DNA of 64,000 nucleotides from Promethearchaeia archaeon (GTDB taxonomy: Archaea > Asgardarchaeota > Lokiarchaeia > Sigyniarchaeales > SOKP01), in NCBI GenBank assembly GCA_029856145.1, contig JAHQWK010000001.1, positions 288,001-352,000 of the forward strand. The letters run 5' to 3'. The notes under the pieces were generated by a model. It did no database searches. It saw nothing but the letters and a program-made list of their open reading frames with translations, and was not told where the DNA came from. Each line of letters opens with the position of its first letter. Positions within the stretch are counted from its first letter, which is position 1. Positions 4,383 to 25,021 of the stretch are shown here, piece by piece. The position numbers and the translations under genes were made by a program.

Positions 4383-6119
4383 TTATTCCTCCTCCTCCTT
4401 CTTAATCCCACCATTACGGGCGATTTCTTGTTCGATTTCTTCCACAGCTTGACCTGTAGTGGTGTCGAACTCATTTTTAATTTTTGGTGTTATCTGTTTT
4501 GCTATTTGTTTCTCAATAATAGGTCTATGAATTGTGTTCATTGTACAAAAGCTTATTTCCTTTACACTTCCATCTGGCATTGCGACGCCAAAATGTACTA
4601 TACATCTCTTTGTTCTCTCAATGTCCATGTTATAAGCGTCTTGAAAATGCATACTGGAAAGCAACAACGCACCATAACTAAAAGAGCTTACACTCTCCCA
4701 ATCCCCTCGCATTAAAAGTCTTGAAAACATTTCCATGAGTTTTCCTGGTTTTTTCATGTATTGTAACACACCTAAAAGGAATCTTGCTCGGAGTTGGGTT
4801 TTGTCCAGAAAATTCAAACCATTATCTAGAGTTTTACCAAAATCACCTAGTAAATCTTCAAAAATTCTAAGCTGTTTCTTTTCTTTATGTTTAATTTTAG
4901 CCCAAAAACGGTTAGCAAAGTCTATAACTTTTAAAGGGTCGAAATATTCCATTATTGGCATCATTTCGCCCGAATCAGGATCTACTACCATATAACTTGC
5001 AAAACCACAGTCGGGATGACAAGTAAATTCTATTGGTTCAACATCCGCCAAATAGGCTATAACTCTGCCAAATTCCACGATAGTGCTCAAAGGATACCAA
5101 GCATTCTCCATTCCGATCTTCCCACCTGTTTGTTCCTCAATAATTTTAAGTATATCTGCATTGGTTATTCGAAGATCTTGTCGTTCTTCATAAGCAATTC
5201 GGCCACATAGAGAAACCGGCTGAAAAGTTATACCACGAACAACATCCACATTGTCAATAGCATATTGAATGATGTTTCCAACCTCAATATCAGTAACTCC
5301 CTTAGCAATTGTAGCAACCAATACAATGGAATCAAGTCCAGCCTTACGACAATTATCGATAACCCTCTGTTTGTACGCCATGAGATTCTTAATCCCCCTT
5401 GTTTTTTCATATGTGATATCGTTGATGCCATCGAACTGGAAATAGAGTGTATCTAATCCCGCTTCTTTTACCCTTTTGGTCCATTCGAAGCCACCTTTTT
5501 TTCGAGACATCCCATAACCATTCGTAGCTACAATGACTTCCTTAAATCCATTATCTTTTGCCATTTTACAAATTTCAGGAAAATCTTTCCTAACTGTAGG
5601 TTCTCCACCAGTAAACATTATTGCAATTGCTGGAATAGGTTTGCTTCTGAAATGTTTCATAATTCTATCAATTTCTTCCAACGAGGGTTCGACTAAATAA
5701 CCAGATTTTTGTACATTTGCATAACAGAAATTACAATTAAAATTACAACGATTTGTCAAGTCGATTAACGCTAAAGAACAAGTTGATAGGTGCTCTGGAC
5801 ATAAACCACAGTTATAAGGACAACCTCTTGGATCTTCACCAACACAATCAGGAGGATTTGACTCACCATCTTTATCAAATTTCCAAATAACGTTTCCACC
5901 TTTATCTTTTACTGCCCAATGTGTCCATTTATAATATTTAGCAGAGCTACTAATCTTATCTTTGAATTGACCGTGCTCTTCGCAGGTTTTTCTCATCCAG
6001 ATTTCATCATTCTCTTCATAAACTTCGGCACCAATTGGTTCCAAACATTCTGGGCAAACGCTTCCCGTTTTTCGATAATATGGTGTATTTAAATATTCAT
6101 CATCGTCTAAATGATACAT
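4383..6119 (-). CDS. tes: Tetraether lipid synthase Tes / GDGT-MAS (MJ0619-like radical SAM)
   Basis: N-terminal SVCPEC...KTCEEHG; GCPYNCGLCPEH; radical SAM CNFNCNFC; TCHPDCG; HFQDAYNMDIERTKRCIVH; FCTMN. Confidence 0.88.
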   Translation of the reverse strand: MYHLDDDEYLNTPYYRKTGSVCPECLEPIGAEVYEENDEIWMRKTCEEHGQFKDKISSSAKYYKWTHWAVKDKGGNVIWKFDKDGESNPPDCVGEDPRGCPYNCGLCPEHLSTCSLALIDLTNRCNFNCNFCYANVQKSGYLVEPSLEEIDRIMKHFRSKPIPAIAIMFTGGEPTVRKDFPEICKMAKDNGFKEVIVATNGYGMSRKKGGFEWTKRVKEAGLDTLYFQFDGINDITYEKTRGIKNLMAYKQRVIDNCRKAGLDSIVLVATIAKGVTDIEVGNIIQYAIDNVDVVRGITFQPVSLCGRIAYEERQDLRITNADILKIIEEQTGGKIGMENAWYPLSTIVEFGRVIAYLADVEPIEFTCHPDCGFASYMVVDPDSGEMMPIMEYFDPLKVIDFANRFWAKIKHKEKKQLRIFEDLLGDFGKTLDNGLNFLDKTQLRARFLLGVLQYMKKPGKLMEMFSRLLMRGDWESVSSFSYGALLLSSMHFQDAYNMDIERTKRCIVHFGVAMPDGSVKEISFCTMNTIHRPIIEKQIAKQITPKIKNEFDTTTGQAVEEIEQEIARNGGIKKEEEE

Positions 6120-6370
6120 TTTTTGTGTACTCCAAATTTTAATGTTTTAATAAAACATACGTTTATACAAAATTATTTTCCTTTTTTAAAAACATTTTCT
6201 TACGTTTACTACTTTTGATAATATTATTTGTTAATAAACATAAAAACTAATCTTTCTCCCTTCTTACTATTAATTCACGAAGATTTTCAATTTTAGTTAG
6301 ATTAAAAATATAATGTTTATAATTAACAAAATAAAGTAAATACTTAGAGAAAATTTTTGGTGAGACAAAG

Positions 6371-7750
6371 ATGAATGATATGAACTCTGGTTTTGTAAAC
6401 GATTTAAACATGATTTTAGCCACTGATTTTTATCAATTGACAATGGGTGCTGCCTATTATCAATACAATCTCGAGAACAATATTACTGAAGAAAATGATA
6501 TTGCTACATTTGAATTGTTTATTAGAAAATTTCCAGAAAATCGCAATTATTTAATTTTTGCAGGATTAGAACAAGCAATTCAGTATTTACTAAATGCTAG
6601 ATTTACAGAACGAACAATCAAATTTTTAAGAGAGAAGGAAGTTTTCAAAAAAATTGATCCAAGCTTTTTCGATGAGTATTTACCAAATTTTAAATTCAAT
6701 TTGGATGTATGGACAATGAGAGAGGGAAATTTCTTCTTCCCAAATGAACCTATACTGAGAGTACAAGGTCCTATGTTTCATGCGCAAATTGTCGAAACAT
6801 ATCTACTTAATGTAATTAATTTTCAATCTCTAATTGCGTCCAAAGCCTCAAGAATTAAAAATATTGCTCCTAATAAAGTACTTCTTGAATTTGGTACGAG
6901 ACGATCTCATAGTCCTCTTGCGGGAGTCTATGCTGCCAGAGCAAGTTATATTGCGGGATTTAACGGTAGTAGCAATGTGGTTGCGGATCTTGAATTAGGA
7001 ATTAACTCCTCTGGCACTATGGCTCATAGTTTCGTACAGAAATTCGATGATGAGTTAGATAGTTTTGACTTATACTATAAAATCTATGGTAAGAATTCTA
7101 TATTTTTAATAGATACATATGATACTGAAAAAGGAGCTCAGAAATCTTGCAAATATGGGAATACTATATGGGGAGTAAGAATAGATTCTGGCGATCTCAT
7201 TGACCATGCTAAAAAAGTTCGAAAAATTCTTGATGATAATGGCTGTGAAAAAGTATTAATTGTAGCTAGTTCAGATTTGAATGAATATAAAATAAAAGAA
7301 ATTATTGATAAGAATGCTCCCATAGACGTTTTTGGAGTAGGAACTGAATTGGCAACTTCTCGAGATGATCCGACAATTGCGGGAGTATACAAATTAATAG
7401 AATATAATGGAGAGCCAAAAATAAAAATTAGTGAAGAAAAAGTAACTTATCCCGGAATAAAGCAAGTACATCGAATTTACGATAGAAATGGTATGTTTAA
7501 AGAAGATATATTATCACTTGCATATGAACCTGCCCCTTCTAATTCTGAAACACTATTAATTCCAATTATGAAAGATGGTGAATTAATCACGAAATTACCA
7601 AAATTGGATGACATTCAAAAGTTTTATTTAGATAATATTAAGAAATTACCTAAAACCTATAAGAAATTAGAGGAAGTTGATATCTTCGAATTAAAAATTT
7701 CAGAAAAATTAAGGCATCTTACAGATTCTTTAAAACTCAAATATACTTAA
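6371..7750 (+). CDS. pncB: Nicotinate phosphoribosyltransferase
   Basis: TDFYQLTM, EFGTRRSH, GTMAHSFV, LIDTYDT, GVRIDSGDL, FGVGT, VYKL. Confidence 0.95.
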   Translation: MNDMNSGFVNDLNMILATDFYQLTMGAAYYQYNLENNITEENDIATFELFIRKFPENRNYLIFAGLEQAIQYLLNARFTERTIKFLREKEVFKKIDPSFFDEYLPNFKFNLDVWTMREGNFFFPNEPILRVQGPMFHAQIVETYLLNVINFQSLIASKASRIKNIAPNKVLLEFGTRRSHSPLAGVYAARASYIAGFNGSSNVVADLELGINSSGTMAHSFVQKFDDELDSFDLYYKIYGKNSIFLIDTYDTEKGAQKSCKYGNTIWGVRIDSGDLIDHAKKVRKILDDNGCEKVLIVASSDLNEYKIKEIIDKNAPIDVFGVGTELATSRDDPTIAGVYKLIEYNGEPKIKISEEKVTYPGIKQVHRIYDRNGMFKEDILSLAYEPAPSNSETLLIPIMKDGELITKLPKLDDIQKFYLDNIKKLPKTYKKLEEVDIFELKISEKLRHLTDSLKLKYT

Positions 7751-10063: not shown

Positions 10064-10678
10064 CTATTTTGTCATTGTCCCCCTAGAAAGAAATGCGGTT
10101 AAATTATTAACAAGCTCCTCCTCTTCCGGTTCAAAATCACTCCGAATCCACCATGTAAAGACTCCAAGTACCGTAGATGTCCAAACTCTAGCTGAGATCT
10201 TAGGGTTTTGAGGTCGGGCTCCAAATTCTAATAACTTTATAATGATTTTTTCTACTTCTTTGGTAAAATTATCAATTATCTTATTTCTCTTCGCTCTATA
10301 TTTTGTGTTAATGCCTCCCATTTGCTCAAAAAAGATAAGAAACGTTTCCTTTTTTGCTTTAAATATTCTTGCATATCCTCGAAAAAGATTCTTAACGGCA
10401 TAGATTGGAGGAATTTTATTATCTTTAAAATAGACAAACAGTTCTTTAAATTTGCTTATCATGAGTTCAGCTATTCCGCTAATTATAACTTCGAATATTT
10501 CTTCTTTACTTTTAAAGTAATTATACAGGTTTCCCACGCTAGTATTAGCCCTTTTTGTTATATCTTTTATTCGGGTATTATTAAATCCTTTTTCTTCAAA
10601 AACAGAGAGAGCTGATATTATAAACAGATTTCTTTTTTCCTTCTTAATTATTTCAGACTTTTTTTTCCTTAGAGACAT
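10064..10678 (-). CDS. TetR/AcrR family transcriptional regulator
   Basis: ALSVFEEKGFNNTRIKDITKRANTSVGNLYNYFKSKEEIF HTH. Confidence 0.93.
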   Translation of the reverse strand: MSLRKKKSEIIKKEKRNLFIISALSVFEEKGFNNTRIKDITKRANTSVGNLYNYFKSKEEIFEVIISGIAELMISKFKELFVYFKDNKIPPIYAVKNLFRGYARIFKAKKETFLIFFEQMGGINTKYRAKRNKIIDNFTKEVEKIIIKLLEFGARPQNPKISARVWTSTVLGVFTWWIRSDFEPEEEELVNNLTAFLSRGTMTK

Positions 10679-10964
10679 TTAGAGTCAACTCAAAAAAAAT
10701 TATTTAAAATTTATCCATCAAACAATTCATTAAAAAAGACTATACATTTTAAGAAAATATGCTAAAATTTATTACTTTTTAATTTTCAAATACCAATAGA
10801 TTTATTAAATTTATTAGAAATCTGGAAGTAAGTAAAGAATTGCTATTTAAGGAGACTAATAAAAACAAATTATGAAAAGCGGGAAAATGATGGGAATTTT
10901 TAAAAAGTGTTATTTTTATATCTTTTCTTTATTATTTCCTTGAATAATAAAGATAACAACTTAA

Positions 10965-10990
10965 TAAATGAACGTTCATTCAGTGAATGA
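10965..10990. promoter_or_regulatory. Palindromic operator candidate (TetR/FadR-box-like)
   Basis: Perfect 14-bp palindrome AATGAACGTTCATT (10967-10980) inside TAAATGA-N4-TCATTCA, overlapping TCATTCA-G-TGAATGA. Confidence 0.55.
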
Positions 10991-11100
10991 GGATTCGGTA
11001 AAAAACAAGAAATTTTCACCATTGCAAGTGTAGGAAAAGATTTATATAGTAAATTATCTTCTCTTTATAAAAGCAATTATTTAATTAATTAAAAAAACAT

Positions 11101-11337
11101 TTGAATAAAACAAAACAAAATAATGGTGATTACTACTCTATGATTGAAATATTGAAATATTTTGGTGAAATTAAATTTGCAGAACATAATAGTCTAGCAA
11201 TTAATGATTTTGAACTTGCCTTAAAGAAATATTTTTCCGGGAAGTCAAAATTACCCCGTGGACGTTATAAATTCGGTGAAATTGACAATTCATCAGTAAA
11301 GGATTTTACAAAATCATTTATGAATTATTTCGAATAA
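11101..11337 (+). CDS. Hypothetical small protein
   Basis: ORF with coding-like composition; start uncertain (ATG at 11140 possible). Confidence 0.4.
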   Translation: MNKTKQNNGDYYSMIEILKYFGEIKFAEHNSLAINDFELALKKYFSGKSKLPRGRYKFGEIDNSSVKDFTKSFMNYFE

Positions 11338-11454
11338 ATAAATTAACGAATTATTGGTTATATATTTTCTAATTTTTATCCTATTTTTATGGTATTGTTC
11401 TTTTTATAATCAAATTTCATTAAATATTAAATAACTTTTTACATTCCAACAACT

Positions 11455-12294
11455 ATGGCAATCCTAAATAAAATAGAAGAAGTGTTTATTGAAACCAATG
11501 GGATAAAACTTCATACTATAATTGTTGGATCTGGAGAACCTTTGATTTTGTTACATGGCTTTCCAGAATTCTGGTATTGTTGGTCAAAAGTAATTCCACT
11601 ACTTAAGGATGATTTCAAATTAATAATCCCGGATATGAGAGGGTATAATTTATCTGACAAACCGAAGGGTGTGGAAAACTATAAAATAGAAATTCTTGTA
11701 GAAGATATTAAAGGATTAAGCGAAAAATTGGGACTAGGAAAGTTTAATCTTGCGGGACATGATTGGGGCGGAGCTGTAGCCTGGATTTTTGCCGAAAAAT
11801 ATCCGGAGCTATTAAATAAGTTGATTATATTAAATTCTCCTCATCATAAAGTTTTCTCTCAAAAATTAAGAACAGATAAAGAACAGCAAAAAGCAAGTTT
11901 CTATATTTTTGAGTTTTATAAACCTAATGGAGAGAAGTTTATAATTGAAAATAACTATGAACAATTGAGAAAATTTGTCTTTACAAAAAACTTTAGTGAT
12001 TTTGATAAGGAAAAATACATTGAAGCGTGGTCTCAACCTGGAGCAATAGAAGGAGAAGTGAATTATTATAGGGCAAATCGTAGTTTCAAAGAATGGACAG
12101 GAATCATTGAAGTTCCTACCTTAGTACTTTGGGGAATGAAAGATTTATTTTTAACTCCTCAATTATTAGATGGATTGTCCGACTATATTAAGGACTTACG
12201 AATAGAAAGGAACGAAGAATCTTCCCATTGGATAACTCATGATGTTCCGGAATTTGTATCTTCTAAAACTCGAGAATTCATTCAAAGTGAATAG
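11455..12294 (+). CDS. Alpha/beta hydrolase, epoxide hydrolase-like
   Basis: HGFPE, GHDWGG nucleophile Asp, NYYRA, C-terminal SHW. Confidence 0.93.
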   Translation: MAILNKIEEVFIETNGIKLHTIIVGSGEPLILLHGFPEFWYCWSKVIPLLKDDFKLIIPDMRGYNLSDKPKGVENYKIEILVEDIKGLSEKLGLGKFNLAGHDWGGAVAWIFAEKYPELLNKLIILNSPHHKVFSQKLRTDKEQQKASFYIFEFYKPNGEKFIIENNYEQLRKFVFTKNFSDFDKEKYIEAWSQPGAIEGEVNYYRANRSFKEWTGIIEVPTLVLWGMKDLFLTPQLLDGLSDYIKDLRIERNEESSHWITHDVPEFVSSKTREFIQSE

Positions 12295-16752: not shown

Positions 16753-17520
16753 TTGGTTTTTGGTGGATACATAATCACTTTATTTATAATTAATCTTGAT
16801 AGAATTCTTGTAATTTACTTAACTCAAGGAATATTGGTAATCTTTTTTTCATTGCTAGCGTATCGAATATTAAAAAGAAAAAGACAACGATTAAACCTAA
16901 TTTTCAGTCTATTCTTTATATGTACAATTATCGGCACTATTTTTAATATGATTTATGCTCCTTTAGATCCAATACAACATGAACCAATTATCAAAATTCT
17001 TAATTTTTTCGCTAATTTCTTTGTTTTTTTTGCTCCAATCTTTATGGTCATTGTTAATTTTATTATATTAGAATCAACTCTAATATTCTCGGTAAAAAGG
17101 CAAAACAGGTATATTTTCTTTTATGGATTTTTAATTTTCTCCGGAATGTTAATATTAATCTTAATACCAGATCCACTAAACATTTTAGGAGTTGCAATTA
17201 CAGATGAGGGAAGACCAGAATGGGGTATAGTTTTTTTCATTTACATGGTTTCAATGCTTACGGGTTTTACATTCATCCCTATCTTTCGCACATCTTTAAA
17301 GATATACAATAGTTTAGAAACAAAAGAATTAAAGAAGAAATGGGTATACTATTTTATTGGTACTTTAGGAGTATTTAGTTGGGGTTATTTTATTTTTATA
17401 ACGAATTACTTTGGACATTATTTCGCCATCTTAAGGTCAATTTCATCAATATATGGAATTTCAATTATTATCTGGGTCTGTTTGATGTATTATGGAATTG
17501 GGTTTAAGTTAAAAAATTAA
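16753..17520 (+). CDS. Stand-alone 7TM receptor-like membrane protein (copy 1)
   Basis: Seven hydrophobic segments with basic loops after TM1, TM3 and TM5; paralog of 18963..19724. Confidence 0.8.
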   Translation: MVFGGYIITLFIINLDRILVIYLTQGILVIFFSLLAYRILKRKRQRLNLIFSLFFICTIIGTIFNMIYAPLDPIQHEPIIKILNFFANFFVFFAPIFMVIVNFIILESTLIFSVKRQNRYIFFYGFLIFSGMLILILIPDPLNILGVAITDEGRPEWGIVFFIYMVSMLTGFTFIPIFRTSLKIYNSLETKELKKKWVYYFIGTLGVFSWGYFIFITNYFGHYFAILRSISSIYGISIIIWVCLMYYGIGFKLKN

Positions 17521-17612
17521 TCGGATTCTATACAAGCTTGTCTTTTTGATATCAATAGTTTGCTTTTTAAATTCAGTTATTCTGAATATAAAATTTACTG
17601 ATAAGATTTCTA

Positions 17613-17649
17613 TTTTTTCACGGGACAAATTAGAAAAATATTAAATATG
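17613..17649 (+). promoter_or_regulatory. Conserved operator plus BRE/TATA-like element upstream of GNAT copy 1
   Basis: TTTTTTCACGGGACAAAT-TAGAAAAATATTAAATATG aligns ungapped with 19800..19836. Confidence 0.55.
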
Positions 17650-17695
17650 AAAAGAATTAAACAATAAATGAAAAACTGCTAACAATAGGGAAATT

Positions 17696-18799
17696 ATGCA
17701 AACAACTAGTGAAAATTATTTATTAGACCAAGAAAAACATACTTATTTTCATAGATTTATTGCAAAAAATGGAGAAGAATTTGGATTAAGATTTGGAACT
17801 CCTCGTGATGCAAAAGCTCTTTCTATGATTTTTAAAGAGGTATATGGCTATAAATATGCGTATCCTATCGTTTATGATATAAATCATCTAAAAAGGGAAC
17901 TATCAAACAAAAATAAATTTTGGATTGTAGGTGAATTAACAAATAATCATGAAATTGCTGGTTTTGGATTAATAGAAAAAAAAAGATATATTGCTCATGC
18001 TAGCCAAGCTGTTGCAAAGAAAAAATTTCATGGTTTAGGAATTTTAGCAAAACTTGGTGCGGCCGGTGTGATATATGTTATAAAGATGCCTCAATTCAAA
18101 GATGTGCTAAGACTTGATGGAGAAACTCGAGGATTGAAAATTGGCGCACAAAATCTTATTCGAAATGCAGGGGCGTTTCCTTATGGGTTAATTCCTGCAT
18201 ACATTAATTATGGAGACAAGAGGAAATTTAAAATTGATGAAACGACACCAGTCCCACCACTAAAAGAAGAAGCTGCGTTTCTTTATTCAATTATATTTAA
18301 TAAATTATGGCGTAAAAGAGATAAAAACGTCTATTTATTAAATAATGGGGATTTCATCTTTTTTTATAATTACGTTAAAAAAATGTCTAATAAAATGAAA
18401 AAAGACCGTCTGAATTTAGAAAGGGGTAAGAAAGATAAAGGGTATGAACTTTATGGGTTTTCCAAGGATCTCTATGAAGGGAGAGTGAGTTTGTATGGAT
18501 ATATTAAAGAAAAATCATTGAATAATTTGCTTAAAACTTATCACAATTGGAGAATTTTAGTATGGAGAATCCCTACCACTCAAAATGGGATACATTCAAT
18601 GTCCCTTGCTCTTGAAAAAGGATTTAATATAGTTGGATATGATATAGGTTTTAATAATATAAATTGGACTTTATTTGATTCAGTTATACTCGCATACTAT
18701 CCCAACGGGGGCTCTCACGTTTTAAAAGTAAAATGTATGGATGAGAATAGACCTCTTCTTAATAAGATTAGAGAAATATTTTTTTCTCGTGTCAATTGA
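17696..18799 (+). CDS. GNAT-fold acyltransferase, long form (copy 1)
   Basis: DA...FKEVYGYKYAY, AHASQAVAKKKFHGLG (motif A); paralog of 19885..20982. Confidence 0.78.
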   Translation: MQTTSENYLLDQEKHTYFHRFIAKNGEEFGLRFGTPRDAKALSMIFKEVYGYKYAYPIVYDINHLKRELSNKNKFWIVGELTNNHEIAGFGLIEKKRYIAHASQAVAKKKFHGLGILAKLGAAGVIYVIKMPQFKDVLRLDGETRGLKIGAQNLIRNAGAFPYGLIPAYINYGDKRKFKIDETTPVPPLKEEAAFLYSIIFNKLWRKRDKNVYLLNNGDFIFFYNYVKKMSNKMKKDRLNLERGKKDKGYELYGFSKDLYEGRVSLYGYIKEKSLNNLLKTYHNWRILVWRIPTTQNGIHSMSLALEKGFNIVGYDIGFNNINWTLFDSVILAYYPNGGSHVLKVKCMDENRPLLNKIREIFFSRVN

Positions 18800-18962
18800 T
18801 TACGCCTTTAATTTACTTAATCATTAAAATTTCTGTTATATATAATTATAGCGATTTTTTGAATTAAAATTTGGTTAAATATTTGTTATTAAAGCGATTA
18901 GAATATAGTTATATATTTATGAGCAAATATTATACTACCTATAAAAATTAATAATAATCTTA

Positions 18963-19724
18963 TTGGTGGAAAAAACGTCATATCAAGCTGAAATACCGAG
19001 AATTATAATGGTTTATGTGTTTTTGGGAATTTTAGTACTCTATTTTTCAATAATTACTTATAAAGTTTTAAAGAGAAAAAGGCAACGTTTAAATTTTGTT
19101 ATTAGTGGTTTTTTTGTCAGTATATCCATTGGGTTTATTTTAAATATGGCATATGCAGCCATGACTGATAGAATAACTATTCTAATTCTTAATTTCTTAA
19201 CTAATTACTTCATATTTTTTGGACCAGTCTTTCTACTTATTGTAAATATGATAATATTAGAATCAACTCTTATTTATTCTGTAAAAAGACAAAATAGGTA
19301 TATATTATTTTATGGAATCTTGCTCTTCGCAGGGATGTTAATATTAGTCTTATTAGGAGAAATATTTGATACTCCTAATGTACCATTTTTAGGAGTCCAA
19401 ATAATTAATAACGCACCAAAATGGGGGCCTTTATTTTTTGCCTATGTAGTTTCAATTATGTCTATTTTTACACTTATTCCAATAAATTATACAAATTTTA
19501 AAATCTACTTCCAGTTTGAAACAAAGGCATTGAAAAGAAAGTGGTTTTTCTATTTATTTGGCTTTTTAGGATTAACAGTGATTTTATATTTTAGTATTAT
19601 ATTTAATCTTTTGGATGCTATTATTTATGCTGATGTTAGATTAATAATAACTCTATCAATAAGTAGTGTAATAATCTGGGGTTATATGATGTATTATGGG
19701 ATTGGAATTGAATTAAAGAAGTAA
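18963..19724 (+). CDS. Stand-alone 7TM receptor-like membrane protein (copy 2)
   Basis: Seven TMs; shares LKRKRQRLN, IILESTLIxSVKRQNRYI and MYYGIG with copy 1. Confidence 0.8.
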   Translation: MVEKTSYQAEIPRIIMVYVFLGILVLYFSIITYKVLKRKRQRLNFVISGFFVSISIGFILNMAYAAMTDRITILILNFLTNYFIFFGPVFLLIVNMIILESTLIYSVKRQNRYILFYGILLFAGMLILVLLGEIFDTPNVPFLGVQIINNAPKWGPLFFAYVVSIMSIFTLIPINYTNFKIYFQFETKALKRKWFFYLFGFLGLTVILYFSIIFNLLDAIIYADVRLIITLSISSVIIWGYMMYYGIGIELKK

Positions 19725-19799
19725 TGCCTTAACCTTTTTTCTTGAATTTAATAATTCGCGTTATTTTTCAGAATCTTTATTCTGTAACTTATTTTTAAT

Positions 19800-19836
19800 T
19801 TTTTTCACGTGAAAAAATAGAAAATTTTATATTATG
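19800..19836 (+). promoter_or_regulatory. Perfect 18-bp palindrome plus BRE/TATA-like element upstream of GNAT copy 2
   Basis: TTTTTTCACGTGAAAAAA followed by TAGAAAATTTTATATTATG. Confidence 0.6.
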
Positions 19837-19884
19837 CTCCGAGAAGAATTAATTAACTAGTTAAAAATAGATCGGGATATTAGG

Positions 19885-20982
19885 ATGGCAACCATCATTA
19901 AAAAAGGATTAGATCTTCAAGAAGAGGATGCTTATTTTCAAAAATCTAAATTTAAAAATGGACAGGAATATGGATTAAGGTTTGCTATTCCAAAAGATGC
20001 TACAATTATCTCATCTCTGTTCAAAGAAAGCTATAATTATGAATATCCTTATCCTTATGTTTACGATATCGAACTTTTAAAAAAGGACATTTCAAAACCT
20101 AATAAATTTTGGGTCCTAAGCGATTTATTAGAAAATAAAGTGACTGTTGGCTGTGCCTTAGTCGATAAAGAAAGATACATCGCCCATGCTGGGTGTTTAA
20201 TTGTGAAGAAAGATTTTCGGAGGCAAGGAATTACAAAAAATTTGGCAGCAGCAGGGCTTTTAACAGTTACAAAAATGCCTCAATTTAAAGATGTTTTAAG
20301 ACTTAATGTTGAAGTTCGTGCTCCATTAACTCAAGTTCAAACTTCTGCTCAAAATGCGGGGGCAATACCTTATGGTATAATACCTAGTCACATTAAATTA
20401 ACAGATAACAGATATTTTGATATTAATGATAATAAGCCATGTTCCCCCCAAAATGAAGAATTCAGTACAGTACTTTATTCAATGATTTTTAGAAACCTAT
20501 GGAAGAAAAGAGACAAAAATGTGTTTCTATTAGATAATGAAGATTTAATCTTCTTATATGAATATATTAGAAGTCAAGCTAAAAAAATGAAAGACGATAC
20601 ATTAATCCTTAAAAACAAGAAAAGGAGTAAAGGATATGAACTTTATGGTGTTTCTAAAGATTATTATTTGGCACATGTGAAATTATTTGGCTATATTAAA
20701 GAAAAATCTCTTAATCATTTATTAAATACTTATAGGAATTGGCGAATGATCCTATGGAAAGTTCCGACTACTGAAAATGGAATATCTTCGATGTCTATAG
20801 CCTTAAAAAAAGGATTTAAAGTGGTGGGTTATGATATTGGGTTTAATAACATAAATTGGACCTTATTTGATTCAATTATACTAGCATACTATCCTAATGG
20901 AAATTACGTGTTGTCAGATATAAATTGTTCAGATACAATAAAACCTCTTTTTAACAGGATAAAGAAACAATTTAAGACTTAG
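19885..20982 (+). CDS. GNAT-fold acyltransferase, long form (copy 2)
   Basis: LIVKKDFRRQGIT (motif A); shares KMPQFKDVLRL, KGYELYG and VGYDIGFNNINWTLFDS with copy 1. Confidence 0.82.
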   Translation: MATIIKKGLDLQEEDAYFQKSKFKNGQEYGLRFAIPKDATIISSLFKESYNYEYPYPYVYDIELLKKDISKPNKFWVLSDLLENKVTVGCALVDKERYIAHAGCLIVKKDFRRQGITKNLAAAGLLTVTKMPQFKDVLRLNVEVRAPLTQVQTSAQNAGAIPYGIIPSHIKLTDNRYFDINDNKPCSPQNEEFSTVLYSMIFRNLWKKRDKNVFLLDNEDLIFLYEYIRSQAKKMKDDTLILKNKKRSKGYELYGVSKDYYLAHVKLFGYIKEKSLNHLLNTYRNWRMILWKVPTTENGISSMSIALKKGFKVVGYDIGFNNINWTLFDSIILAYYPNGNYVLSDINCSDTIKPLFNRIKKQFKT

Positions 20983-21087
20983 ATTTAACAATTACCAACT
21001 GTTAATTAAAATTCTCAAATGAACTTATTAAAAAATTATCAAAAAGTACTGAAAAATAGCTGATCTCGTTAAATTTTCATTCTTTAA

Positions 21088-21543
21088 TCATGATAATAGC
21101 GAAATCACTTTTTCTTCAAAAGTTTGAGTACCTGTTCCAAAAATTTTAGTGAGGGATTGTTTAAAAGGTTCAAATTGGCCAACTTTCGTAAGATTAGAGC
21201 CATCAAAATGAGAAATAAATCTTTTTAAAAACTTTTCCAATAAGGGTAAAATTGATTTTTTTAAATACTTCTCAAGTCTATAATCTTTATCCAAAACTAT
21301 GAAAGCAACAATTTCCTGAACATCTCTAAATAAATCTTTTATTGTACCTTTCTTAAAAATTATTGAATATTTATCACTTTCAAAATATTCTACTGGTTCC
21401 ATCAAACATTCGGCAAAACTCAAGAGCCCACTCATTAATCCACTTGAACAAACTAAATTAGTTTGACTTTTACTAGCTCTATGATAGCTGATGAATATAA
21501 TGGGAATTCCATGGAAGATTATACCGGCTTCTCGAATCAACAT
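21088..21543 (-). CDS. Free longin-like domain protein
   Basis: Beta-beta-alpha-beta-beta-beta-alpha pattern: IREAGIIFHGIPII, SGLMSGLLSFAE, YSIIFK, IVAFIVLD, QFEPFKQSLTKIF. Confidence 0.7.
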   Translation of the reverse strand: MLIREAGIIFHGIPIIFISYHRASKSQTNLVCSSGLMSGLLSFAECLMEPVEYFESDKYSIIFKKGTIKDLFRDVQEIVAFIVLDKDYRLEKYLKKSILPLLEKFLKRFISHFDGSNLTKVGQFEPFKQSLTKIFGTGTQTFEEKVISLLS

Positions 21544-21811
21544 AATGAATTCTGAAGTAAATTAAACCAAATCGCTGTTACGGATATTCTTATAAGAATA
21601 CTCCTAATATTCGACAAAATTCTCATATATAAATATAAGTCTTTTCGAACATATTTCGTCGCGATAGTACAATATTAATGCTAAACAGAAAATACGTCGA
21701 ATAAAAAAATTCTCTCAATAAAATATCTCTGAAAAGAATTTTATAGGATTTTAAAAAAAATTTTGTTTCAAATTATACTAAAATAGGGTTTTATTGCAAC
21801 TAATAGCACAT

Positions 21812-22942
21812 TTATGTTGAAAAAATCTCATCAATGATATTTTTAACTGGGTAAAATACAGTTAAATCTCCATTCCAATTAATCAAAATGTTATTATATA
21901 TTTCTTCAACCTTCAGAACTAATCTTTTTAGATTATATGTAAAATATTTCAATTCCTCTTTACTAATTAAAATTCCTGTAATATAATTGGCAGAAAAAAC
22001 ATTTACTATTTTTCTTTTTTTCTTTATAACAGAAATTTCATTAGGTTTGCCATGAATCAATTCATTAAGCATGATATTCATAGAAGCTAAAGCTCCAGAT
22101 ATAAATTGCTTTTCTAAAATTTCAGTATTCTCCATAAAGGAATAATTATATAAACAAATTCCATTTTTATTCAAGATATATATACTTTCAATTTTATCTT
22201 GCCAGTCATATTCAAAGAATGAAGGAATTTTTCTAAAAAAAATGAAGATAAAGCCAATAGCTATTAGTTGGAGGAGGATTCCTATAAATCGAACTAAAAG
22301 GTTTAAATTTTCAAGAAGTAGATCCATCGAAAGAATATATCCCACTAATATAAGTAGGATTGTAAGTGTCATTTTTAGGGCTCCCTTAGGGAGTATATTT
22401 TGTTTTTTCGATTTTTTACCAAAATCTATAACATAAATTATAAAAAACAAAATAAATAAAGGAAAAGACAGAAATGAAAGCACATTAATGATTTCTAAAT
22501 TAATGAAGAATATGACTATAAAAATTAATAATTGAATTAAAAAACAAGTGGTAAAAAAAAATCTTTTGAATAAGAATTTTTTATATTTTTCCATGAATAA
22601 CGTAAAAAATAAGGTACTTAACATTATTGATAGAAATCCAAAATTTAATAAAAGACTTCTAAAACTCCCAATGGTCCATAGAAAAAAAGGAGAAATGATA
22701 AGATCACTAGAGTAGTAGTCACCTAATAAAAAGAAGAACCTCATTAATGAAAATCCGCTAAATAATGCGAAAAATCCTAAATCTTGAGAATTTTTAAGTG
22801 GCTTTGGCTGTTTTTTATATTTGATTAAAAATAGTAGACCTAATTCAAAAGATAAGAATATGAAAATCCAATCCATTACTAAGGATAAAAATCTATGTGG
22901 ACCAATAATAGGAAATTCTGTAAATAAAATATTAATCATCAT
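21812..22942 (-). CDS. 7TM-longin fusion protein
   Basis: Seven TMs, linker PSFFEYDW, then IESIYILNKNGICLY...FISGALASMNIMLNE...WNGDLTVF (Asgard longin-like). Confidence 0.8.
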   Translation of the reverse strand: MMINILFTEFPIIGPHRFLSLVMDWIFIFLSFELGLLFLIKYKKQPKPLKNSQDLGFFALFSGFSLMRFFFLLGDYYSSDLIISPFFLWTIGSFRSLLLNFGFLSIMLSTLFFTLFMEKYKKFLFKRFFFTTCFLIQLLIFIVIFFINLEIINVLSFLSFPLFILFFIIYVIDFGKKSKKQNILPKGALKMTLTILLILVGYILSMDLLLENLNLLVRFIGILLQLIAIGFIFIFFRKIPSFFEYDWQDKIESIYILNKNGICLYNYSFMENTEILEKQFISGALASMNIMLNELIHGKPNEISVIKKKRKIVNVFSANYITGILISKEELKYFTYNLKRLVLKVEEIYNNILINWNGDLTVFYPVKNIIDEIFST

Positions 22943-22945
22943 CCA

Positions 22946-24091
22946 TTATTGTAAAATTCTATTAATAATAACTTCAAAACTCGAAAATAATTTTCCTTGA
23001 TCGCCCTTTAAATCCTCCAAATCTAATAAAATCTCTTTAAAAAAAGACTCAAATTTAATTCTTATAGATTTTAGAAGATGATGAGTACTACTTAAATCCC
23101 TTTTTACAACTAAAATATATGTTATATGAGAAGGATTCAATCCATATTCTAAGAACATATGAAAATCTCCTTTCTTTATTTTATTTATTTTTTCTTTTAT
23201 GGTACCTGTGATAATTGTAATAATACTTTCGATTCCCATTATTCCTTTAGAAAACAGTATCTCATTATTATATAAATGATTTTGACTTATTTTACTATTA
23301 TTTTCAAGTTTTTCAATAAAATTATAACTATAAATGCAACTTTTGTTGTGTTGATTAATTATAAATAATTTTAAGAGGTTGTTTCTCCATTCAAATTCAT
23401 AAAATGGAGGAAAGTCATAAACAGAAAAGAAGATAATAATGAAACCCGTCAATAATTCACCTACTCCTGTGAAATATATTATTTCATTAATAACTGGAGG
23501 TAAAACACCCAAACCAACCAATGAAGCAAAAACTAATGCAAATAAACTTACAATTGCTCCAATGAGAAATAATTTAAACTTTTTCCTGATACTACCTATT
23601 GATTTTTTAATCAAAATTAATTGAAATCTGATTATATATAATCCATTTAAAACAACAAATAAGATGCTTAAAATAAAAATTGGTGAACCTAGGTAAGGTA
23701 CTAATAAAATCATAACAATAGGTATGATATTAAAGATCATCAAGATTTTAGCAATATTTAGATTTATTATAATTGAAAAATCCTTTCTAATTATGAAAAT
23801 GGAGACGCTAAAAGTAGAAAAAAAAGCAAAAAACCAACCCATTCTTGAAAAGAGTTCATATAAAATTCTATCTTCAATGAAATTCCTTGATATTTGTATT
23901 AGTAATGGACCTAAAATTATGAACAAAACAAATGACCCAAATGCTAGTAATACTCTATTTAAGGGAAGAGTTATATCTTGAATTTTGCGATATTGGAAAA
24001 AAAAGTATAAGGCTAATTGAATACCTATAATTACCGGTACCAGATAAGCCAGAAATTGCAGTTCTTTACTAATTTCAATTTGAGAAAGCAT
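22946..24091 (-). CDS. 7TM-longin fusion protein
   Basis: Seven TMs, linker PPFYEFEW, then LLKLFII...LFSKGIMGIESII...ITYILVVK...FESFF. Confidence 0.78.
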   Translation of the reverse strand: MLSQIEISKELQFLAYLVPVIIGIQLALYFFFQYRKIQDITLPLNRVLLAFGSFVLFIILGPLLIQISRNFIEDRILYELFSRMGWFFAFFSTFSVSIFIIRKDFSIIINLNIAKILMIFNIIPIVMILLVPYLGSPIFILSILFVVLNGLYIIRFQLILIKKSIGSIRKKFKLFLIGAIVSLFALVFASLVGLGVLPPVINEIIYFTGVGELLTGFIIIFFSVYDFPPFYEFEWRNNLLKLFIINQHNKSCIYSYNFIEKLENNSKISQNHLYNNEILFSKGIMGIESIITIITGTIKEKINKIKKGDFHMFLEYGLNPSHITYILVVKRDLSSTHHLLKSIRIKFESFFKEILLDLEDLKGDQGKLFSSFEVIINRILQ

Positions 24092-24220
24092 TTTTTATAT
24101 TTACGTAAAAAAATTAAACTGAATTTGAATTTTTTAATATTATTTTCCTGAAAGCACTATAAATATTATTCTCTTTTTCTTAAATTCAATAATTAATATT
24201 TAAACAGAGTATTTAACCAT

Positions 24221-24754
24221 TTATATTAATTGAAAATCTTTTAAAATTCTTTTCAATAAAGATTCGAATATATCTTCCACGTTTTCCCCTGTTTTGGATG
24301 AACATTCTATATAATCAAAGAAATTATATTGATGTCTTATTTTTTCTGCTTCCTTCTTTGAAACTGCTATTTGATCCTTAAGATCTAACTTACCTCCAAC
24401 CAGTATGATTGGAGGATTTTGTTTTCCAGGAGATAAACCCTTTTTAAAAGTATCCAACCATTCTTTAACTCTAATTAATGTTCCATATCTAGTAAGATCA
24501 AACATAAAGATGCCACCAGAAGATCCCCTTGAGTATAATGGTAGTAAAAAATGAAACTCTTTTTCACCACCAAAATCCCACACTTGCAATACTATTCTTT
24601 TATCTTCAATTTTTAGAAATTTTATAAAAATTTCTGCTCCCATTGTAAGCTTAATGTCTTCATCAAAATACCCTTTAAGAAATCGCTGAGCTAATGTAGT
24701 TTTTCCTACACCACTTTCTCCAAAAATGCAAATTTTGTAAGCTAATTCTCCAAT
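24221..24754 (-). CDS. Rab-like small GTPase (Ras superfamily), about 177 aa, probable ATT start
   Basis: The frame extends upstream of the called ATG (24643) through YKICIFGESGVGKTT (G1) and LTMG (G2); also WDFGGE (G3), GGKLD (G4) and CSSKTG (G5). Confidence 0.92.
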   Translation of the reverse strand: MGELAYKICIFGESGVGKTTLAQRFLKGYFDEDIKLTMGAEIFIKFLKIEDKRIVLQVWDFGGEKEFHFLLPLYSRGSSGGIFMFDLTRYGTLIRVKEWLDTFKKGLSPGKQNPPIILVGGKLDLKDQIAVSKKEAEKIRHQYNFFDYIECSSKTGENVEDIFESLLKRILKDFQLI

Positions 24755-25021
24755 AATAGGCTCCCTCTTTTCTACATTTTATGATTAATAACTATCTGAA
24801 TTCGATTCTTTTAGAAATCGAAAACCTCAACCGAATTTATATTATTAAAGAGAAAAATGCTTGTTCTATTTGAAAACTCGAAAATAAAGCTAAGGCGAAT
24901 TTTCTTTTCTCTATTGTATTAAATAAAATCTTAAATATTTAAATCTATTTTAAAACCTTCTGATAAATCGAGAATTAGTTTTCCAAAATTGTTAAAATTA
25001 AAAAAAATTTTAAAAAAAAAT

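Follow-up and report, generated by a model that had tools for sequence, protein, structure and literature searches.

A Rab-like GTPase gene beside a conserved pair of seven-helix longin fusion genes in an Asgard archaeon

Gene content of the locus

The genes described here lie in a 64-kb stretch of DNA (the window: 64,000 nt, positions 288,001 to 352,000 of contig JAHQWK010000001.1, assembly GCA_029856145.1) from a Promethearchaeia archaeon of the Asgard class Lokiarchaeia. Four open reading frames (ORFs), co-oriented as stated in an earlier note made from the sequence and all on the minus strand, encode in their direction of reading a Rab-like small GTPase (24221..24754, 177 aa from an ATT start), a protein that we call A (22946..24091, 381 aa), its paralogue B (21812..22942, 376 aa), and a free longin-fold protein (21088..21543, 151 aa), the last of which we treat as a neighbour of a GTPase-A-B cassette. 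The last base of A's stop codon is 22946 and B opens with an ATG at 22942, which leaves a gap of 3 nt, while the genes for the GTPase and A are separated by an AT-rich spacer of 129 nt (24092..24220, minus strand) that may hold a promoter for A and B of their own. Corresponding spacers between the GTPase gene and A in related loci measure 27 to 134 nt, and the gaps from A to B are mostly 15 nt or less. Among the public sequencing runs listed as holding this locus there was no RNA run; the strain is present in marine-sediment samples.

Structure and topology of proteins A and B

Comparison of A with B by BLASTP detected similarity in the C-terminal region only (26% identity, E 2e-9), and profile alignment with hhalign also took in the membrane part, over 330 columns (probability 99.6%, E 9e-24), which identifies A and B as full-length paralogues. 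Both the paralogy and the 3-nt spacing that the earlier note had given for the two fusions were thus borne out. An AlphaFold2 (AF2) model of A, built on a 48-sequence alignment (pLDDT 82), contains seven long helices at residues 7-224, in keeping with the seven transmembrane segments predicted before for each fusion and, by full-length paralogy, applicable to B; a linker at 227-235 leads to a longin domain at 238-381. Secondary structure assignment of this domain by DSSP (residues 239-380) gave the order β-β-α-β-β-β-α-α, with a five-stranded sheet between helices, which is the order of the longin fold. Structural comparison with VIA corroborated the assignment, the closest match being Fuzzy longin 1 (9rs9_A; Z 13.1, root mean square deviation (rmsd) 2.6 Å, 122 residues aligned), followed by Sec22b (Z 12.3, 2.6 Å, 121 aligned), AP sigma (Z 11.7, 2.8 Å, 117 aligned), Synbindin, Sedlin and SRX (Z 11.1 each), Trs23 (Z 10.8), BLOC-3 (Z 10.5), and Mon1-Ccz1 (Z about 10). 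For SRX (5ck3) two comparisons were obtained, with Z 11.2 at 2.4 Å over 103 residues and Z 11.1 at 3.0 Å over 118. The C-terminal longin-like domains proposed from the letters alone are therefore supported by strand order and by fold comparison alike. A contains one longin domain, after the membrane part, and B aligns with it end to end; membership of the tri-longin-domain Rab guanine nucleotide exchange factors (GEFs), which carry three tandem longin domains per subunit, was rejected on this ground.

The membrane part of A (residues 1-230) was compared exhaustively with 48,161 chains, and only seven-helix receptors, OST-alpha and rhodopsins were listed, with the 7TM domain of ADGRL3 as the best match (Z 13.8, rmsd 3.7 Å, 201 aligned). 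Neither A nor B matched any Pfam family, including any 7TM family, at E up to 1. Of the proposed analogy to G protein-coupled receptors (GPCRs), the shape of a seven-helix bundle is retained and membership of a Pfam 7tm family is not. Loops on the C-terminal side of the bundle carry on average 12.2 lysine and arginine residues across the A family, vs 2.9 on the N-terminal side; this count agrees with the N-out/C-in topology suggested previously and places the longin domains in the cytoplasm. Conserved residues of the membrane domains occur on both membrane faces (Glu10, Gln12, Asn45 and Arg69 in A; Arg17 and Glu33 in B).

The linker between the two domains reads PPFYEFEW in A (FPPFYEFEW at 227-235) and PSFFEYDW in B. 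Phe227, Pro228, Phe230, Glu232 and Phe233 are invariant in the A family and the motif is looser across the B family, so the PxFxExxW linker ascribed to both fusions is present in both as described, with weaker conservation on the B side. Residues invariant in the family alignment of B include Gly261, Trp356 and Gly358. The Pfam family Sybindin was matched weakly by four of 29 B-family members (best E 5.7e-4) and not by the B of the window. Within the membrane part of B, positions 22179-22427 occur as two haplotypes with seven to eight linked substitutions in contigs of several sediment metagenomes, a strain-level diversity concentrated in this one short stretch.

Distribution of the A-B pair

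All 102 homologues of A are hypothetical Asgard proteins from metagenome-assembled genomes (MAGs). We compared 34 related A-B loci, drawn from species representatives and assemblies of MAGs labelled Loki-, Hel-, Odin-, Hod-, Hermod- and Sigyn-; B follows A on the same strand, directly adjacent, in every one, and the two form an obligate-looking pair, an arrangement that lends indirect support to a physical pairing of their longin domains. The family is large: among representatives of clusters at 50% identity, a profile of B has 1842 matches with E up to 1e-3, of which 597 pass 1e-10 and 173 pass 1e-30, mostly proteins of 355-375 aa aligned end to end. The nearest members are unnamed, and the atlas neighbours of the A/B family are unnamed Asgard clusters. 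Matches at E up to 1e-10 were present in 128 of 400 genomes of the phylum, the strong ones only in the class to which the window belongs.

The genome of the window holds a single A-B pair of the window type. It also encodes a diverged second 7TM-longin pair (C3:216870-219318) and further membrane proteins with a C-terminal longin domain (C22:70027-71340, C4:2510-4744, C24:31888-36561), two of which measure 745 aa, with about 13 helices, and 1558 aa, and the profile of the B longin domain matches about 25 of its ORFs. Two of the related loci are unusual as assembled. In one (L009, 9085-10285) B is split into two overlapping ORFs by a frameshift or an assembly error, and another, on a contig labelled Candidatus Nanopelagicaceae bacterium (Actinomycetota; L013), is nearly identical to a cassette-bearing Asgard contig (L011) and has probably been mis-binned.

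The Rab-like GTPase

The GTPase matches the Pfam family Ras (3e-39) and, among Protein Data Bank (PDB) sequences, is closest to a Thorarchaeota Rab (7ezb, 8e-33), followed by Ypt6, Rab5 and Rab14. Its earlier description as Rab-like is upheld by these matches and by a Ras-superfamily G domain with motifs G1 to G5, including GESGVGKT (G1), DFGGE (G3), GKLD (G4) and SSK (G5). According to the orthologue alignment, the G3 motif DFGGE of the window's clade places Glu at the position of the catalytic Gln in the DxxGQ of Ras and Rab proteins. The protein ends in KDFQLI and has no C-terminal Cys for prenylation or geranylgeranylation.

No ATG, GTG or TTG was found upstream of the P-loop of the GTPase. 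The ATT at 24754-24752, six nucleotides after the sequence GAGGGAG, aligns with the ATG start of the orthologues and is invariant in contigs of four DNA runs, which belong to three studies (2016, 2017 and 2024); since no variant appears across these studies, the codon is real and not an assembly slip. The interval 21088-24778 first proposed for the four-gene module does include the GTPase, and its end lies about 24 nt too far. An out-of-frame ATG-TAG start-stop is found just upstream of the ATT, at 24777-24772.

Linkage and co-inheritance of the GTPase gene with A and B

A co-oriented small GTPase gene stands directly upstream of A in 17 of the 34 A-B loci; in three others one lies one or two genes away. 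The GTPase-linked loci are distributed among four deep clades on the tree of A. With 66 GTPase ORFs in the 3.55 Mb of the window's genome, adjacency by chance is expected at well under 2% per locus. The association is strict in the genus of the window, where three genomes with a window-type A carry a GTPase 69-72% identical to that of the window immediately beside it. None of the five genomes of this genus that are 95-100% complete and without A encodes a GTPase above 53% identity. Five distinct genomes with only other A-B arrangements (G216 and G400 are one genome, counted once) hold none above 54%, and in a sixth, G403, nothing passed the E cut-off. Orthologues of this GTPase therefore occur in the genus only where a window-type A-B occurs, always adjoining it, and this joint occurrence indicates that the three genes were gained or lost as one cassette. 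The GTPase linkage expected from the earlier note thus holds well above chance among the relatives and strictly within the genus, and fails in about 12 of the 34 loci and in 16 of 18 more distant ones, to which we return below.

Several arrangements elsewhere combine related genes differently. At L043 (G128:C5:1278000-1295000), six tandem 7TM-longin genes in the order A-like/B-like, A-like/B-like, B-like, B-like face two convergent Rab-like GTPase genes, and at L044, elsewhere in that genome, a lone 7TM-longin gene comes after a GTPase gene. In one sub-clade, represented by L011 and L013, genes for small-GTPase-domain proteins of about 530 aa stand on both flanks of the cassette (5581-7170 and 10429-12006); their closest relatives in the window's genome are a tandem pair at C1:30720-34077.

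Predicted complex of the longin domains with the GTPase

We predicted a complex of the longin domains of A (224-381) and B (236-376) with the GTPase, scoring the GTPase alone as the partner. The ipSAE was 0.82 (0.79, 0.82 and 0.82 in three runs) vs 0.38 for the best control; the runs share at least 91% of their contacts, and the pLDDT of the partner is at least 83. In calibration, 58 of 80 solved complexes and two of 110 mismatched pairs scored this high. When A was replaced, the score fell from 0.82 to 0.38, which suggests that both longin domains contribute. On the side of the GTPase the predicted contacts comprise switch I (35-52), the interswitch (63-67), switch II (74-87) and the N-terminal strand, and on the side of the longins helix α1 of A (276-293), helix α1 of B (276-294), the β1-β2 loop of B (259-263) and B 357-361. 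The model thus predicts a docking in which the switch regions of the GTPase rest on the α1 helices of both longin domains. The predicted docking geometry is that described for MglB, TRAPP and Mon1-Ccz1 (PMC10933270). The B residues Gly261, Trp356 and Gly358 fall in the predicted GTPase interface and do not vary in A-B clades that lack a GTPase neighbour either, as would fit a partner whose gene lies elsewhere.

The free longin-fold protein and its neighbourhood

The 151-aa protein downstream of B has a longin strand order in its AF2 model (pLDDT 74), and Foldseek returned AP sigma subunits as the best matches (3e-4). No Pfam family matched it, and its profile gave only a weak match among PDB sequences, to a Lokiarchaeota longin (8yqg, E 0.15). 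It has at least 120 homologues, 67-99% identical among those listed and nearly all of 151 aa, and is far more conserved than A or B; its likeness to B's longin domain is marginal (hhalign probability 39%). In three genomes (L054, L055 and L056) the order CdhB, CdhC, free longin, convergent GNAT-like gene and 253-aa 7TM gene is found with neither A-B nor the GTPase between, one of these genomes carrying A-B elsewhere, and locus tags show the free longin and A to be unlinked in several genomes. We conclude from this backbone that the cassette was inserted beside the free longin in the clade of the window.

For these reasons, and given its weak likeness to B, the free longin was ruled out as a fourth subunit: the stand-alone longin of the module in the earlier note is indeed a longin by fold, and belongs to a separate conserved backbone. 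This backbone (16753-21543 in the window) continues after the 253-aa 7TM gene with CTP_transf_like and Metallophos genes, and its GNAT-like gene encodes about 367 aa. In the window the 7TM and GNAT genes occur twice, as a tandem duplication. Together with the free longin these two genes may make up a separate unit. The stand-alone 253-aa 7TM neighbours were also considered as kin of the A and B membrane domains and rejected (hhalign probability at most 1%).

Proposed mechanism and alternative explanations

We propose that the GTPase, A and B form a three-gene cassette in which a membrane-held A-B longin pair binds the switches of the GTPase and sets its place and its nucleotide state, a reading to which we assign a rough probability of 0.55. 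A and B would reside in the cytoplasmic membrane with the N-terminus outside and would pair, so that the two cytoplasmic longin domains form one membrane-held platform. The co-encoded GTPase, which has no lipid anchor, would dock on this platform via switch I, the interswitch and switch II, and the pair would fix both its position and its nucleotide state. Control would most likely be exerted by nucleotide exchange, as in the longin heterodimers of TRAPP and Mon1-Ccz1, because the nearest structural and the weak sequence relatives (TRAPP, Fuzzy, Mon1-Ccz1) are GEF subunits and because neither longin domain has a conserved Arg that could serve as a finger; a GTPase-activating protein (GAP) of MglB type or a docking site specific for one state would be less likely. 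The size of the seven-helix bundles, their conservation on both membrane faces and the invariant linker suggest that they could link control of the GTPase to an external or membrane cue. In its fullest form this would make A-B a two-subunit receptor, in which a conformational change, brought about by an external ligand or by the condition of the membrane, is relayed via the conserved FPPFYEFEW linker to the longin platform and directly switches exchange on the Rab-like GTPase, and we consider that form unlikely. If it were true, A-B would be a one-step receptor-GEF and an archaeal way to place lipid-free Rab-like switches on the membrane, older than both GPCR-G protein coupling and GEF-driven Rab targeting.

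Several observations weigh against a cassette of this kind. About 12 of the 34 A-B loci have no GTPase gene within 5 kb, namely two clades together with L002, L026 and L010; on the A tree, these two clades and the few single loci have lost the GTPase neighbour. The adjacent GTPases fall in at least five well-supported places among the 53 paralogues of the window's genome, which argues that there was no single ancestral pairing, and one orthologous partner for all A-B clades was ruled out by reciprocal best hits and by the tree. The L010 genome lies inside a GTPase-linked clade and keeps A-B without an orthologue of the GTPase, showing that the pair can persist without this partner. Among distant 7TM-longin paralogues, represented by 18 loci of other Asgard classes, 16 stand without a GTPase next to them, and single genes are frequent. 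The 129-nt spacer from the GTPase gene to A may carry a separate promoter, and the membrane-domain Z of 13.3-13.8 against ADGRL3 can be reached by helical bundles without kinship. The score of the complex may stem from likeness to solved longin-Rab complexes, since the geometry is shared with these and the pass may reflect a memory of them, and the alignments behind the prediction are shallow and differ from those behind the calibration.

Alternatively, A-B could be a membrane complex, such as a sensor, transporter or scaffold, whose longin domains dimerise or bind something other than a small GTPase, with the neighbouring GTPase as a lineage-specific passenger. The absence of a nearby GTPase in about a third of the loci and in most distant paralogues, the L010 genome that keeps A-B after loss of the GTPase lineage, the non-orthology of the adjacent GTPases across A-B clades, and the metabolic genes that are the neighbours of A-B in a GTPase-less clade are consistent with a passenger. 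However, different Rab-like GTPases stand beside A-B in four or five clades that are independent of one another, where chance would give less than 2%, within the genus the GTPase and A-B are only ever gained or lost together, and the predicted interface joins switch regions to family-invariant B residues that are kept in GTPase-less clades too. We consider this explanation unlikely.

Two further alternatives accept the contact and differ on its consequence. The longin platform could be a docking site or effector for one nucleotide state that tethers the lipid-free GTPase without catalysis, in the manner of SRX-SRbeta-GTP. SRX (5ck3) as one of the closest structural matches to the longin domain of A, contacts predicted with switch regions that also define effector binding, and the missing prenylation site of the GTPase are consistent with such tethering, which the sequence does not distinguish from a GEF; but most longin or roadblock pairs that touch switches change the nucleotide state (Levine 2013, as far as it is relayed in PMC10933270), and docking by itself seems quite unlikely to us. 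An arginine-finger GAP of the longin type (FLCN, NPRL2, SMCR8) is very improbable. The Glu in place of the catalytic Gln in the window-clade GTPase might create a need for help with GTP hydrolysis, but Ras Q61E hydrolyses GTP faster than wild type, and if this applies here the Glu in DFGGE need not demand a GAP. The known longin GAPs combine an arginine finger with a GP motif in the β1-β2 region (PMC12290439). This signature was looked for in A and B and was not found: no Arg is invariant or 90% conserved in the longin domains of either family, and the β1-β2 loop of B reads NKNG, with no GP. A finger-free GAP resembling MglB lies outside this objection.

Comparison with known systems

Platforms of longin or roadblock domains for small GTPases are familiar, and in Asgard archaea Rab-, Arf- and Rag-like GTPases number in the dozens, as do longin and roadblock proteins. 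In matching these GTPases with their regulators gene order has been almost no help, and in MK-D1 the GTPase genes do not generally share an operon with longin or roadblock genes (Tran et al. 2024, PMC10933270). The cassette singles out one GTPase with two candidate subunits of a regulator, and the predicted interface points to particular residues. It also offers a possible answer to how a tail-less Rab-like protein is placed at the membrane, in that the longin partner itself spans the membrane.

The core of TRAPP, a Ypt1/Rab1 GEF, likewise contains two different single-longin subunits, Bet5/TRAPPC1 and Trs23/TRAPPC4 (Sybindin), on which the Rab sits via its switches, as is predicted here. TRAPP, however, is soluble and requires Bet3-family subunits for catalysis, whereas the longins of A and B are each fused to a seven-helix domain; a search of the window's 97%-complete genome for Bet3 (PF04051) gave no match, as did its control search. 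Mon1-Ccz1, Fuzzy-Inturned in CPLANE and HPS1-HPS4 in BLOC-3 are heterodimeric longin platforms that act on Rabs at membranes, and Fuzzy longin 1 is the best match of the A longin domain; their subunits have three longins each and reach membranes via lipids or partners, whereas A and B have one longin and helices of their own. In MglA-MglB and the actinobacterial conservon (CvnA-D), the gene for a Ras-like GTPase stands beside one for a regulator of the roadblock/longin superfamily, and the conservon, which has been likened to receptor-G protein systems, adds a gene for a membrane sensor. These systems use roadblock domains, an MglA-like GTPase and, in the conservon, a separate histidine-kinase-like sensor, whereas here membrane domain and longin share one chain in two paralogues.

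Among Asgard archaea, an operon for a LAMTOR1-like roadblock, a Rab-like GTPase and a DENN protein has been described (Liu et al., bioRxiv 10.1101/2020.10.19.343400). It is likewise a conserved neighbourhood of a Rab-like GTPase and candidate roadblock/longin-superfamily regulators; its components, however, are all soluble and of different families, with no seven-helix membrane protein. Adhesion and class C GPCRs, OST-alpha and microbial rhodopsins share with A and B the seven-helix bundle in N-out/C-in orientation. Unlike GPCRs, A and B have no Pfam 7TM sequence match, no heterotrimeric G protein is involved, and the output domain is fused to the receptor-like part.

In the literature searched, outside which most subscription papers lie, we found no description of an Asgard 7TM-longin fusion, in line with the earlier note, which knew of no characterised system of this kind but allowed that such fusions might already be catalogued, and a 2026 preprint that lists Asgard 7TM and GPCR-like clusters does not mention longin fusions. 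What sets the present locus apart from the systems above is the fusion of a longin domain to a receptor-shaped membrane domain, in an obligate-looking paralogous pair that forms a cassette with a Rab-like GTPase.

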